60,389 nucleotides of DNA. It comes from Fistulifera solaris (Eukaryota). This document shows, piece after piece, positions 37,726-45,520 of this stretch (the stretch's first letter is position 1; each line of letters starts with the position of its first letter). The notes under the pieces were generated by a model, which ran no database searches, was not told the DNA's origin, and saw nothing but the letters and a program-made list of their open reading frames with translations. The stretch is taken from contig AP026133.1 in the NCBI GenBank assembly GCA_030295235.1, forward strand, positions 1,302,001 through 1,362,389. The letters run 5' to 3'. Made by a program: the position numbers and the translations under genes.

Positions 37726-40119
37726 TTATGTCTTCGTTATGCAGTATTGAGCACAAAGAGAGTTCAGACTGGCAAGAAATGGATTCATGGCAGTATCGTC
37801 GAGTGTTGACTTGAGATATTCAGGAGACGGGTCAGGAAAAGTTTCTTCTACAATTCCGCTATCCTCACTGGGTAGCATAGACAACTCAGCATTTCTGGAT
37901 TCGGATCGATGACGATCTAGATCTGAGAACGAATTGTCGTCTTCATCTCCAAATGATAAGCCAAATAAAGCCTTTGCGGGACGAACTGGTGGAAGTCGCG
38001 GACTGCAAAAGTCACCGAGGCGCGCAGCATTACCGTTCTTTGTTGTGCACTCCGATATCTCTCGATATTCGTTTTCGGAAGGGTATGGCTGAAGCTCAGA
38101 GGCGAAAGTGTTTTCGTCAGAAAAGTCAGCTTTAACGCTTGTCGACAGAGGGTACCGTGTTGTAGCACTTCGATCATAAATTGTTTTTATTTTGTCCTCC
38201 TCTACCGCGGTTGTATCAGTAGACATTTTTCTCGGAAATCTGTTTGGCGAACAAATAGAGCTGCTTTCTTCTCTACAAACTTGACTTGAAATGGCATTGG
38301 TTGACTGTCGAGCCTTCAGACACTTTCTAACTTTCTGTTTACTCCTCGAGAATAAGCTTGCCTTGCTAGCAACTGAATTGATTTCGCCAGTTCTATCCGG
38401 TATTCTGACACGTCGATTATCAAAAGATTCCGACATTGTGCGCGATCGATGTGAGGTAACGGGAGACAGACTGCGCCCGACATTCCGACTAATTTTCTTT
38501 GTGGAATTGTTCGAACACACTGACTTTGGATCGTGCGTAGCAGCGGTAGCTTTTCCGTCAACCTTTCTTCTTGCTACTCTCAATGCCATCTTACGTCGAG
38601 CTGTCTTTATTGAAGCTGGACTTTGCTTTGCTGCATATTCATCCGGAATGGAAATGGTGCTTTGATCTTCTGAAAAATCCATTTCAGTCAACTCAGATGT
38701 AACGTTTTCGATCACGTTCGAAGTTACCGTGATAGTCGGTCTAGTGGACATGCGTGGATCGTGCTTATGCTCAACCGTCGTGTACTCGGAAATTAAGGGT
38801 AGCCCTCGCTCTGGTACACTGCAAAAGGATTGAGCTCCTGGCCTGTGTTGTAATATCTTTTCCTTAATCTTTTTCGGAACCAAGCTTCCCAGCATCCTGT
38901 TTGCCCTGACTCCGTTGAAACTTTTGCTTCTGATAGAATTAAAAGTCGTCAATGAGCAATCGTCATCACAGTCATCGTTTCCTTCATCTGTTTCTCTATA
39001 AGCACAAGCTTCGACTTCAAAGTCGCTTGCTATTGTGCTCATTCCCCGAAGAGACTGGTCACTTAAAGATTGCAGCTGGCGGAGGGAAAAACTTTTTTGT
39101 CCTAAAAAGCTTTCGATATCCCGGGTGTCTATCGCCTTCTTTGCAACTCTCGGGGCTGATTCGACATAATCGGCTGGACAAATATACTGCCGACGAAAAG
39201 GCGACGAGGCTGGCGAAAAACTCTCGTTCCCATGTGGATATTGAGAGCATCGAAACTTAACGGCGGCGTCGTTTCTGGGGTTACTTTGAGTGTAGCTGGA
39301 TTGCGGTCGGGTTGGTAGACGTGAGTCGCTTTTTGGCAGTTTTTCATCACCCCCTAGCACATATTGCTTCTCCGACGTACGATCTCTTTTGGTCGTGTAC
39401 CCGTTTAGAATTTTTCGAAAATTAGTCCCACGATCTTTATTTAAGTTGTTGACGGCGACTCTTTGAATTACCGATGGAGCAGTTTGAACAGATGTCAGGG
39501 AATTTTGGGAAGTCACAGAGGGATGCCTTCGTTTCGACCTCGTTCTCACTTTTCGCTCGGGGAACGCATTGATGGATCCGTCGTCTAAATCTTCTGCAAA
39601 TCCTTTGATGGAGACGACAGATGAGATACTACCGACAGCGTCCGAGAGGGGGGAAACCTCATTGATATCGGTAGGAGAAGAAGGATCGACGACACGCACG
39701 AGATCAGGCCGTGAAGGACAAACTCTTAGAGAGTTCGAAGGCCGAGCTGGCGCTAGCAGAAGCGGATTGTTTCGCGATGATACAAGATTTCTTCGTCGTG
39801 ATTGTCTTGTGTAGGTGTATTGTGAATCGTCTCTGCCCTGATACAATTTATCCTGCGATTCTGGAGCATCACGCTTTTCCACGGCGCTTTCCTCTACAAA
39901 TCTGGACCCAGGACGTTGGCTGTTAGTTCGAGTGGCAGAACTAGAATCGATCACAGTAACTCTTCCAGGTTTGTAAGGGTCATATCGCATTGATGTAGAA
40001 GACTGCGCGGAGACTAACGGAACATGCTTGTCTGGAAAACGCTTCGTTTCGACAGAATGATCTATCGGCCCGTTGTGGCTCGGAATGTCCATTTCTTCAG
40101 GAAGAACTTCCGGTTTCAT
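37726..40119 (-). CDS. Hypothetical Ser/Arg-rich disordered protein
   Basis: 797-aa uninterrupted ORF; no domain recognised. Confidence 0.65.
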   Translation of the reverse strand: MKPEVLPEEMDIPSHNGPIDHSVETKRFPDKHVPLVSAQSSTSMRYDPYKPGRVTVIDSSSATRTNSQRPGSRFVEESAVEKRDAPESQDKLYQGRDDSQYTYTRQSRRRNLVSSRNNPLLLAPARPSNSLRVCPSRPDLVRVVDPSSPTDINEVSPLSDAVGSISSVVSIKGFAEDLDDGSINAFPERKVRTRSKRRHPSVTSQNSLTSVQTAPSVIQRVAVNNLNKDRGTNFRKILNGYTTKRDRTSEKQYVLGGDEKLPKSDSRLPTRPQSSYTQSNPRNDAAVKFRCSQYPHGNESFSPASSPFRRQYICPADYVESAPRVAKKAIDTRDIESFLGQKSFSLRQLQSLSDQSLRGMSTIASDFEVEACAYRETDEGNDDCDDDCSLTTFNSIRSKSFNGVRANRMLGSLVPKKIKEKILQHRPGAQSFCSVPERGLPLISEYTTVEHKHDPRMSTRPTITVTSNVIENVTSELTEMDFSEDQSTISIPDEYAAKQSPASIKTARRKMALRVARRKVDGKATAATHDPKSVCSNNSTKKISRNVGRSLSPVTSHRSRTMSESFDNRRVRIPDRTGEINSVASKASLFSRSKQKVRKCLKARQSTNAISSQVCREESSSICSPNRFPRKMSTDTTAVEEDKIKTIYDRSATTRYPLSTSVKADFSDENTFASELQPYPSENEYREISECTTKNGNAARLGDFCSPRLPPVRPAKALFGLSFGDEDDNSFSDLDRHRSESRNAELSMLPSEDSGIVEETFPDPSPEYLKSTLDDTAMNPFLASLNSLCAQYCITKT

Positions 40120-42537: not shown

Positions 42538-43284
42538 ATGGTGATCATGAACAATCTATTTCGTTATCATTCACCACGAGCAGATGCGGCGACCTCTCCG
42601 CGTCGCAGCAGTGCCACTGTCAAGAGCGCACCTCAGCTGCAACAAAGTCGTGACTTTTTCGACAAAATGTCACGTTATACTCGAGCTAGTGATCGGAAGA
42701 ATGTCTTGAAAACGCTGAACGAATGTGGCGTACTCAAGCTAGTAGCACTGCCATCCAAACCTGCATCGCCTTCCAATGAATTCGCTTGGAATATGTTGGA
42801 AGAAGAAGTATGTCGAATGCGCTTTGATATCAACGGTGTTCCTCTCGGACCCGGGTGCTACTGTTCGAGCGTTTTCGAAATTCAAAAAATTCTAAAGACG
42901 GTGTGTGCCAAGCTAGCAGCCCGAACAGAATCTTATTCGGCGGATGAACTATACCGTGAACTCATTGTGCGAATGGCAGAGTCAAATACTCAAGCTGACT
43001 CGCACCGTGCCCTAGATCCTCTCATGGGAAGTCCGCAACTCCAGCTGCAGGTACCTCCCAGAGAATCTGCTATCCACGAACCACACACGACAGTTTCCTT
43101 GTACGAGGCCAATGGTCATCTACATTTCGTGCTTGATACGTATCATACATTCGGTTTGTTTCGAAAATTAGACTTGGGAAGCGACAAACCATGGATCAAA
43201 ATCACTGCAGCTTTTCATGAGAGATCCAATCTTTGTACCGGTACAGCAATCCGTAATATTGCAATCCATTTGCCTCAGAAATAG
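42538..43284 (+). CDS. Hypothetical globular protein
   Basis: 248-aa ORF with protein-like composition. Confidence 0.6.
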   Translation: MVIMNNLFRYHSPRADAATSPRRSSATVKSAPQLQQSRDFFDKMSRYTRASDRKNVLKTLNECGVLKLVALPSKPASPSNEFAWNMLEEEVCRMRFDINGVPLGPGCYCSSVFEIQKILKTVCAKLAARTESYSADELYRELIVRMAESNTQADSHRALDPLMGSPQLQLQVPPRESAIHEPHTTVSLYEANGHLHFVLDTYHTFGLFRKLDLGSDKPWIKITAAFHERSNLCTGTAIRNIAIHLPQK

Positions 43285-43374: not shown

Positions 43375-45520
43375 CTATGGCATATCGTCGCGGTCGGGAA
43401 CTTGATATCCGCCGGCAATATCTTCCATGTGGATGGCGTGATACATTTCGCTACTCACATTCACGTACTGCGACATGTAGGACAGCTGACCTTTAATCGC
43501 GTCGTTCAATGCATCTACACCAGTCTTCTCAATCACTACAATACAAGGCAAGTTATTGGTCGTTCGAACGACGTTGCAGCGTAGTAGGCGATATCGACCA
43601 CTCAATTTACGAACAATTCGCGTCAATTGCAGTCCGCGCAAAACCAACATGACAATACGTCCTTTGTCTTTCAGCACATACCAAGCTGTGCGTAGGAAAA
43701 TCTCGTACAAGGACTGCAAGTCGTTTACATTCTTTGAACCTGTCATGACACCCCATGGCAAGTTAGACACAATAGAGTCCACAGATTCATCTTGTAAGTG
43801 TTTACGCAAAGCGCGAGCATCGGTGCAGTGAATTTCACAAGATCCTGGAGGACAATTTTCAGCCCGAGCGTTCTCTCGCGCTCCTCGGGCGCTTTTGCCC
43901 GATACATCCATGCCAATACATTTGACTTGTTGTCCCGTCATCTCCATTGCTTCCAACAATATAGTTCCACCTCCACAAAATGGATCCACCACAAGATGTC
44001 CAGGTTGAACATTGGCACAGCGCAACATGACGTACGCTAAATTGCATTTGATAGTGACACCATTTCGAAATCGAGTAAAGTGACGGCGTGCCATTTCTTC
44101 CACATTCAGTTGTGTTCCTATCATGACGACGTTTCCCACGACATCGACACGAATGTGAACGTCAAAGTCTTCCATCCGAGGATGACACGTGTCCTTGTAA
44201 TATTCCGACAAAGCGCCTCCTATTTCAAATTCGACTTGCGGTGCTCGAAATACATGAGGTCCACCAATTCGGTCGCATGAAACACGGAAACTGCATTTGT
44301 TAGGACCCTGTAGATTCGGAATTTGAGCGTCGCCTGTGACGAGCCGGTGCTTGTAGAACTGATACAATTGTTCGCCATCGATGGTAGCAGCATCTTCCTG
44401 GATGTCATGCAAGTCAAAATGATCGTGATATTGCATCAAATGGTGTGCCGATCGCAGCTGCAGCAATTTTGCGACGAGTGCGGTAGATGAAGACGAGGCC
44501 GATGCACGCAAGTCAGATACTTCGTCGTTTCCAGGTCGCTCATTACGACAAATCGCGACGTACCCCGCAGCATCCCATGGCCGAGGAATAGCCACCCAAC
44601 AATCAAGCATTTCACTGTCAGAAAATACACACTCCCAGATTTCCGAGACAGTGTATTGTTCCGCACCAATGTTAGTCCGCACGGTGTAAACAACACGATT
44701 CAGAGAGGCGTCCTCCTCAAGTTGCGGTGTTGTCGATAATGCATCCCCAAAAACAACCACACGACCTCCGTTACCCTCCTGGTCATCATCTGGCTGATAA
44801 ACACTAGGAAGATTCCCTAGCGGCAGATCGGTCATGCGCTGCAACCACTTGTCACGGCGTTCATGCTCTTGTTCACCCAGGGTATCGTGACCGTATTGTT
44901 TACAACGAAAGGTAAGATTGATGCGTCCTTCGGTAACGTTCGTTTGTCTGGGAATACTGTGCACGTACTGCTCTTGACAAATGGGTTCCATAATCACTAA
45001 GGAACCGTGTTGCAATGCGAGTGTGTGCTTCTCGAGCCCCTGCTTGGCGCGAATGCTAAAAGACCGTGTCGCACCCAAACTGATGCTCGCAATCGGCGTC
45101 GTGCGACCAATTTCTTCTCGATCGCAGTGCCAGCCGATTCTCTGCTGTCCGTCTTGATAAAAATTCAGTAAACATACGTTAAACTGAACATTTGCGTTAT
45201 TCTTTTCGTTATACCAAATTTCGGCTTTTTTGTGAGATGGCTTTAATAGTTTCGGTAAAAGGTTTGCTTTGTTCTTGCTGCTGCTGTTGATGAGCTTGTG
45301 GATTGTCGCGATACTTATATGCGTTGCTGTTCGAACTATTGCTTGCTAAATCATTCTCCGGCTCTTCGTAAAGAGCGACCCAGCGATTGATCTTCGCGGT
45401 TTTCTCCCACGGCGTGCCGTTCAGTAATTGTTGATAAAAACGATCAGCATCTTCTAAAGGCAAAAAGTGTTCATCGTGATAGACACAAGGAATGTTTAAA
45501 GGTACTTTGTATTCTTCCAT
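43375..45520 (-). CDS. AlkB (ALKBH2/3-like) 2OG-Fe(II) dioxygenase fused to THUMP and Trm14/TrmN-like RNA methyltransferase; frameshift in a homopolymer at ~45228
   Basis: FNVCLLNFYQDGQQRIGWHCDREE..IASISLGATR..YVHSIP..RINLTFR; THUMP SFRVSCDRIG..EIGGAL..IRVDV; MTase VVDPFCGGGTILLEA, GMDV and IVSNLPWG. Confidence 0.85.

Follow-up and report, generated by a model that had tools for sequence, protein, structure and literature searches.

A conserved diatom protein joins an ALKBH3-like dioxygenase to a predicted THUMP-type guanine-N2 methyltransferase

We analyzed a stretch of 60,389 nucleotides from the diatom Fistulifera solaris (GenBank assembly GCA_030295235.1, contig AP026133.1, positions 1,302,001 to 1,362,389 of the forward strand; hereafter the window) and focused on a gene whose product joins an AlkB-type dioxygenase, a THUMP module and a methyltransferase in one polypeptide. 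The gene lies on the minus strand and runs from 45520 to 43375 as a single exon of 714 codons plus stop once base 45226 is disregarded. The encoded protein is identical to F. solaris GAX11072.1 (P0124). In the window as assembled, a frame without stops at 43375..45345 (P0001, 656 amino acids (aa)) holds the bulk of the fusion protein, and the N-terminal 98 codons, beginning with the ATG at 45520, lie in a different frame from the remainder. The 103-codon open reading frame (ORF) starting at this ATG (P0002) has no Pfam match by itself and supplies the start of the AlkB fold that P0001 lacks. Judged against the nearest database proteins, the two frames meet in CACAAAAAAGCC, where an extra A (45226..45226, minus strand) gives a homopolymer of six A instead of the expected five and creates an apparent frameshift between codons 98 and 99; five A would read ...AISQK|AEIWYNEK....

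We placed contigs of four public runs on the locus. These runs are only presumed to be RNA, one of them has a 24-kb contig, and we used them solely to judge base 45226 and the absence of joints. The base was omitted at full depth in the contigs of all three runs that cover it (X1, X2, X4; X3 has no cover there), and a 206-nt contig piece carrying this difference was otherwise identical to the window. No joints or introns were seen across the locus. Without base 45226 the ORF has 714 codons, zero internal stops and matches GAX11072.1, a hypothetical protein, letter for letter. Since the three covering runs omit the base and the ORF lacking it equals the deposited protein, the extra A is probably a one-base homopolymer error of the assembly and not biology. 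We rejected an intron as an explanation for the change of frame, as deleting one A joins the frames perfectly and the contigs showed no joint. F. solaris has another such protein, GAX13725.1 (P0003, 713 aa), which is likewise intact at 92% identity and probably represents a second, diverged copy (homeologue) of the fusion gene. We give very little credence to the idea that the extra A is genuine, that the copy in the sequenced strain is a real pseudogene and that the homeologue alone is functional. The window assembly does contain the extra base, and the runs without it may come from the same source as the deposited protein and hence not be independent of GAX11072.1. However, the change concerns one base of homopolymer length, every covering contig lacks it, with the 206-nt piece otherwise the same, and no further stop or shift occurs in the 714 codons. 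The fusion gene is intact, intronless and nuclear.

The N-terminal part of the protein (residues ~12-206; 44902..45487, minus strand, as for all features of the gene) is an ALKBH3-like 2-oxoglutarate (2OG)/Fe(II) dioxygenase domain as identified by Pfam, by PDB sequence matches and by Foldseek. The Pfam family 2OG-FeII_Oxy_2 (PF13532) matched the window frame with E 2.5e-29 and 103.3 bits and the homeologue P0003 with E 1.1e-33 and 117.6 bits (cut-off 31.2). The Fe(II)-binding HxD motif (H131, D133; 45121..45129), the distal Fe(II)-binding histidine H187 within YVHSIP (44959..44961) and the 2OG-binding RINLTFR (R199...R205; 44905..44925) are all present. When P0124 was compared with PDB sequences, human ALKBH3 (2iuw) matched the whole domain (E 5e-16, residues 12-206) and ALKBH2 matched the core only (E 7e-12, residues 112-205); ALKBH8 was absent from the matches at E<=0.001. 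In the sequence alignment, WHCDRE of the diatom domain pairs with WHSDDE of ALKBH3, and a Q/N-rich low-complexity insert lies inside the AlkB domain at ~residues 53-90. We modeled the homeologue P0003 with AlphaFold2 from a 30-sequence alignment and obtained a mean predicted local distance difference test (pLDDT) score of 79 and a predicted TM-score (pTM) of 0.66, with low confidence confined to the Q/N-rich insert, the linker and the tail. The Foldseek TM-scores of this model, normalised to the target (TMt), were 0.69-0.74 for ALKBH3 and 0.71-0.80 for ALKBH2. By sequence, the AlkB module belongs to the ALKBH2/3 group and is ALKBH3-like with a complete catalytic set. The AlkB fold is followed by a helix (~residues 207-229; 44833..44901) in which T-x-G-E-x-x-H-x-x-R-D is invariant across diatoms and to which nothing in the ALKBH3 alignment corresponds; an inter-module or RNA contact is a possible role.

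A variable, low-confidence linker (~residues 230-263; 44731..44832; mean pairwise identity 0.26, pLDDT <50) leads to a predicted RNA-docking module composed of a ferredoxin-like N-terminal domain (NFLD) together with THUMP (~residues 264-478; 44086..44730; Pfam THUMP match 44113-44304). On the homeologue P0003 the THUMP match is marginal, with 20.9 bits at a cut-off of 20.6. The docking module is followed by a Rossmann-fold S-adenosylmethionine (SAM)-dependent methyltransferase of the UPF0020/RMKL-like family (PF01170, E 4.4e-28; residues 479-638; 43606..44085). Its SAM-binding motif I, DPFCGGGT (D512-T519; 43963..43986), pairs with DPFTGSGT of TrmN, and its catalytic motif IV, NLPWG (N586-G590; 43750..43764), pairs with NPPHG of TrmN. 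The C-terminal end of the methyltransferase fold and two extra helices (residues 639-714; 43378..43605) are conserved except for the last ~15 residues. Among PDB sequences, TrmN of Thermus (3tma) matched P0124 with E 2.8e-23 over residues 401-665, and P0003 matched Trm14 with E 2.7e-10 and Trm11 with E ~5e-6. Comparison with NCBIfam gave sub-threshold matches to RlmKL, EmtA and Trm14.

At the level of predicted structure, the AlphaFold2 model matched Trm14 with TMt 0.85, TrmN with 0.80, Trm11 with 0.52-0.54 and RlmKL with 0.41, and an Atlas model aligned with Trm14/TrmN-type clusters over residues ~263-667 (TM 0.84-0.90). Because whole TrmN and Trm14 chains and clusters align, residues ~264-665 appear to form a complete NFLD-THUMP-Rossmann unit. 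The position of the target guanine in this enzyme group depends on geometry: a shorter distance from THUMP to methylase (TrmN/Trm14) selects G6 and a longer distance (Trm11) selects G10 (PMC9957541), and THUMPD3-TRMT112 makes N2-methylguanosine (m2G) at positions 6/7 and requires the CCA end (PMC8599901). As the model fits whole TrmN and Trm14 better than Trm11, it points to a methyltransferase module with G6/G7-type and not Trm11 G10-type geometry. Docking of the AlkB part (1-231) against the THUMP-methyltransferase part (255-700) gave a median score of 0.30 with a mark of 0.34, which neither supports nor opposes an interface between them.

An initial annotation made from the letters of the window had proposed a fusion of an AlkB dioxygenase with THUMP and an RNA guanine methyltransferase, with the only frameshift upstream of the catalytic residues, and had correctly taken the DNA for that of a diatom. 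The data above agree with it in these respects. PF13532 scores above its cut-off, the Fe(II) triad and RxNxTxR are present, and ALKBH3 and ALKBH2 are the best PDB matches for the domain; the second half of the proposal is borne out by Pfam, by the TrmN sequence match and by the whole-chain fold match in the same polypeptide. The motifs quoted there (HCD, the histidine of YVHSIP, RINLTFR, DPFCGGGT and NLPWG) are all located where it had placed them and all lie in the one frame at 43375..45345, so that the fusion is independent of the shift caused by the extra A at 45226.

We then asked how widely this arrangement occurs. Of 7272 candidates compared with the long frame of the window, 180 were relatives at E<=0.001, and we scored the domain make-up of the best 120. 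Both PF13532 and PF01170 were found in 114 of these 120. The initial annotation had named orthologues that never show the fusion as grounds for doubt; the orthologues retain it. The named organisms among the best 120 are diatoms only, pennate as well as centric (Fistulifera, Seminavis, Cylindrotheca, Amphora, Nitzschia, Pseudo-nitzschia, Bacillariaceae, Thalassiosira, Skeletonema, Cyclostephanos). Six fused relatives are transcriptome ORFs marked complete (P0022, P0035, P0039, P0050, P0091, P0104), so that in other diatoms the two enzymes are encoded together on single transcripts. Across the diatoms sampled, centric and pennate, the three-module arrangement is kept, as judged from these domain matches.

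Split-gene forms were sought among the six of the 120 relatives without an AlkB match, and none was convincing. The cluster mates of P0101 and P0111 are full-length, at 672 and 781 aa, P0110, P0112 and P0122 lie on contigs of 1.4-2.2 kb, and P0116 (405 aa) begins at residue 298, within the NFLD.

To judge constraint we aligned 30 sequences, namely 29 database proteins and the window frame. All catalytic motifs are invariant in 30/30 (P0003 numbering, +1 for the window protein): H130, D132 and H186 of the Fe(II) site; R198, N200, T202 and R204 of RxNxTxR; D511-P-F-C-G-x-G-T518 of motif I and N585-x-P-W-G589 of motif IV. Regional conservation, expressed as mean pairwise identity among the 29 database sequences alone, was highest in the two catalytic domains, with 0.71 in the AlkB core (44 of 96 columns invariant) and 0.69 in the methyltransferase (53 of 188). 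THUMP reached 0.50 (15/137) and the NFLD 0.37 (4/78), and linker residues 230-262 had 0.26 (1/33). Because the AlkB core and the methyltransferase have such similar identities and their motifs are invariant, both catalytic domains are under similar, strong constraint in this alignment.

One fused protein carries a non-diatom label: P0115 is from a EukProt transcriptome of the dinoflagellate Gymnodinium smaydae. It was sister to seven sampled diatoms in a quick tree and could be genuine, prey-derived or a contaminant.

We also looked at what each half is related to. Against 1.84 billion representatives, an exhaustive HMMER search gave 9056 matches at E<=0.001, of which 71 reached E<=1e-30. For the THUMP-methyltransferase half, the named relatives without the fusion that lie nearest are choanoflagellate proteins (P0157 of Diaphanoeca and P0161 of Didymoeca, 39% identity each), and the cryptophyte Guillardia (P0177, 37% identity) is also among the nearest. 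In a quick IQ-TREE phylogeny of 41 rows with SH-aLRT support, all fused modules formed one clade (SH-aLRT 100), nested in a 22-row group with the choanoflagellate and cryptophyte proteins and unnamed longer proteins (SH-aLRT 100). The sampled bacterial TrmN-like proteins stood apart from this eukaryotic group (SH-aLRT 92). The sole labelled THUMPD2 (P0361) lay outside the 39-row TrmN-like group, where it shared a long branch with a Trm11-like protein of archaeal origin, and matched with E 2.6e-12 and 30% identity, compared with 2.1e-37 for a bacterial TrmN-like protein. The tree thus places the methyltransferase module with a eukaryotic TrmN-like clade and away from THUMPD2, as represented by this one long-branched sequence. 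The initial annotation had listed Trm14, TrmN and THUMPD2/3 together as the family of this module: the Trm14/TrmN type stands (E 2.8e-23 for TrmN; TMt 0.80-0.85), and the one labelled THUMPD2 is distant. Regarding THUMPD3, Atlas feature matches to THUMPD3 clusters reached 0.82, which we take as a lead only, and none of the 104 matches of choanoflagellate P0157 was named THUMPD2 or THUMPD3 in a search that depends on shared words.

Other combinations of these domains were seen among the relatives. Metagenomic proteins P0186, P0195, P0232 and P0236 (40-47% identity) fuse AlkB with a C-terminal BMT5-like rRNA (uridine-N3) methyltransferase, and such BMT5-like plus AlkB proteins are among the nearest non-diatom relatives of the AlkB half. 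DUF4326 with AlkB (P0204) is another combination among those nearest non-diatom relatives. Further architectures were a RING finger with a THUMP-type UPF0020 methyltransferase (P0185), and a tRNA U5-methyltransferase-like domain with THUMP and UPF0020 (P0211).

What might such a protein do? The reading we prefer, and to which we assign about an even chance, is a tRNA-anchored bifunctional enzyme whose eraser and writer act on different bases of one tRNA. The NFLD/THUMP module would dock on a mature tRNA at its acceptor stem and CCA end, as other THUMP enzymes do, and the Rossmann methyltransferase would write m2G at acceptor-stem position 6 or 7. The tethered ALKBH3-like dioxygenase would be held on the same tRNA and oxidatively remove methyl groups of the N1-methyladenine (m1A)/N3-methylcytosine (m3C) type, which may be marks or alkylation damage. 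ALKBH3 is reported to be a tRNA m1A/m3C demethylase in human cells (PMC6411830). Several points weigh against this reading. The enzymology of the 714-aa protein is inferred from the families of its parts. In the window's own protein the Pfam THUMP match has 17.1 bits and lies under the cut-off. Motif IV is NLPW and not (D/N)PP(F/Y/W/H) as in TrmN, with the first proline replaced by leucine. The G6-type geometry comes from predicted models, which may echo the solved TrmN and Trm14 structures, and the linker with its low pLDDT leaves the mutual orientation of the AlkB and methyltransferase modules unfixed. The assignment to ALKBH3 over ALKBH2 rests on E-values and coverage and not on a tree. In addition, the runs at the locus, being only presumed RNA and including the 24-kb contig, do not establish transcription of this copy. 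Finally, the relative THUMPD2 acts on U6 snRNA, so the substrate need not be a tRNA (PMC10415138).

This last point leads to the rather improbable case that both activities target another structured RNA, for example U6 snRNA (the THUMPD2 substrate) or rRNA (the RlmL substrate). The NFLD-THUMP-UPF0020 architecture indeed also serves U6 snRNA (THUMPD2, PMC10415138) and 23S rRNA (RlmL, PMC3351187), and the sub-threshold NCBIfam matches include RlmKL and EmtA besides Trm14. Yet the best matches in sequence and fold are TrmN and Trm14, the TMt to RlmKL is only 0.41, and THUMPD2 P0361 is a distant long branch whose E-value of 2.6e-12 compares poorly with the 2.1e-37 of the bacterial TrmN-like protein. 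Alternatively, the two enzymes might share no substrate at all, the AlkB part being a general single-strand DNA/RNA alkylation repair enzyme, the THUMP-methyltransferase a standard tRNA m2G writer and the fusion only a means of co-expression or co-localisation. A long, variable and disordered linker reminiscent of beads on a string is what one would expect in that case, and AlkB domains of the same type are promiscuously joined to unrelated modules (BMT5-like, DUF4326). Nevertheless, we consider this unlikely: none of the six relatives without an AlkB match looks truly split, a conserved helix directly follows the AlkB fold, and the other fusion partners found are likewise RNA methyltransferases, so that RNA seems to be a recurring theme.

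It is also conceivable, with a low probability in our estimate, that the dioxygenase takes as its substrate what the fused methyltransferase has made and converts m2G (or N2,N2-dimethylguanosine) in the acceptor stem to N2-hydroxymethylguanosine or guanosine, either as a sequential pathway like that of ALKBH8 or as a self-contained reversible switch. AlkB-type enzymes able to strip N2-alkyl groups from guanine are known. The tight, diatom-wide linkage of both domains fits substrate channelling, and ALKBH8 provides a precedent in which the AlkB domain hydroxylates the product of the fused methyltransferase (PMC3265494). The diatom domain is, however, ALKBH3/2-like, with ALKBH8 not among the PDB matches at E<=0.001, and it carries H-x-D-x-E as in WHSDDE of ALKBH3, so the pocket looks like an m1A/m3C type. 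Moreover, a constitutive writer joined to its own eraser would run a futile cycle unless regulated. If this scenario were true, the protein would be the first natural case of an m2G writer and eraser (or hydroxylase) in a single chain, diatoms would have on their tRNA an acceptor-stem mark that can be reversed or oxidised further, and the BMT5-like plus AlkB fusions would be parallel cases for N3-methyluridine.

The surroundings of the gene give no functional hint, since the flanking long ORFs at 42538-43284 (plus strand), 45955-46827 (minus strand) and 37726-40119 (minus strand) have no Pfam family at E<=0.001. Further along, a gene for the large subunit of ribonucleotide reductase (RNR; 47948-50116, plus strand) appears as two separate ATG ORFs. 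The first (47948-48766) covers the RNR all-alpha domain and barrel profile positions 1-113, the second (49328-50116) covers barrel positions 279-466, and neither contains the middle of the barrel; the split may be due to an intron or to frame errors like that at 45226. The GC skew jumps to +0.34 over the final 2 kb (58001-60000), whereas the rest of the window stays within ±0.12.

Our full-text literature search found no paper describing an AlkB-THUMP-methyltransferase protein, an earlier mention in supplementary data or architecture surveys being possible; likewise, it found no paper on an AlkB-BMT5 fusion. The suggestion that the fusion might be uncharacterised therefore holds as far as the literature search goes, but public records already display the architecture as such, with automatic names such as "mRNA N1-methyladenine demethylase" and "alkB homolog 3". 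A 2012 survey of AlkB proteins places a clan ALKBH12 in fungi and diatoms, and extra domains go unmentioned in the accessible portion of that survey (PMC3265494).

The bifunctional tRNA enzyme that we favor would bear on a general question. Evolution tethered an ALKBH3-like domain to a THUMP module predicted to dock on tRNA and to a putative m2G writer, and kept this arrangement across the sampled diatoms. We know of no RNA-binding module in human ALKBH3, and for this reason the targeting of AlkB-type erasers to particular RNAs is an open problem. The diatom protein offers a tractable system, with recombinant protein and transformable diatoms, to ask whether tRNA demethylation or repair can be targeted via the acceptor stem. 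It also raises the questions of whether writing and erasing are coordinated on one tRNA and whether m2G itself is reversible. Together with the BMT5-like plus AlkB proteins, the fusion hints that pairings of AlkB domains with methyltransferases recur.

Among the closest known systems, ALKBH8 of animals, plants and protists also places an AlkB dioxygenase N-terminal to a tRNA methyltransferase in one polypeptide, and it is the only natural protein with such a pairing known to have been characterised. ALKBH8 acts on tRNA, and the diatom protein is presumed to do so. ALKBH8 consists of an RRM, AlkB and a Trm9-type methyltransferase, whereas the diatom fusion combines an ALKBH3/2-like AlkB domain with NFLD and THUMP and with a UPF0020/TrmN-type (guanine-N2) methyltransferase. 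Pfam gave no match to an RRM or a Trm9-type methyltransferase in the window frame or in P0003, and the initial annotation was right to set the protein apart from ALKBH8. It represents the second natural AlkB-methyltransferase architecture after ALKBH8, unlike ALKBH8 in all three modules. Taken by itself, the dioxygenase resembles human ALKBH3 (and also ALKBH2) in its HxD...H and RxNxTxR residues and in its jelly-roll fold, and ALKBH3 is its best solved-structure match; ALKBH3, however, is a stand-alone protein of ~286 aa without an RNA-targeting domain, and the diatom domain differs from it by the Q/N-rich insert, by WHCDRE in place of WHSDDE and by an overall identity of ~27%. The other half shares the NFLD-THUMP-Rossmann architecture with TrmN of Thermus, archaeal Trm14 and human THUMPD3-TRMT112, and its motifs I and IV align with those of TrmN. 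Unlike the diatom protein, these enzymes have no dioxygenase, and the diatom module has NLPW as motif IV and falls in a separate eukaryotic clade. RlmKL of E. coli offers a further parallel, in that a THUMP-UPF0020 m2G methyltransferase is joined to a second RNA-modifying domain that acts nearby on the same RNA (PMC3351187), but there the second domain is an N7-methylguanosine methyltransferase and not an oxidative demethylase, and the fold match is weak. Finally, the engineered fusions PUF-ALKBH3 and dCas13b-ALKBH5 also target an AlkB-family eraser by means of a fused RNA-binding module (PMC12767104, PMC7261189). Those constructs are artificial, whereas the diatom protein is natural and ancient and additionally carries a writer.

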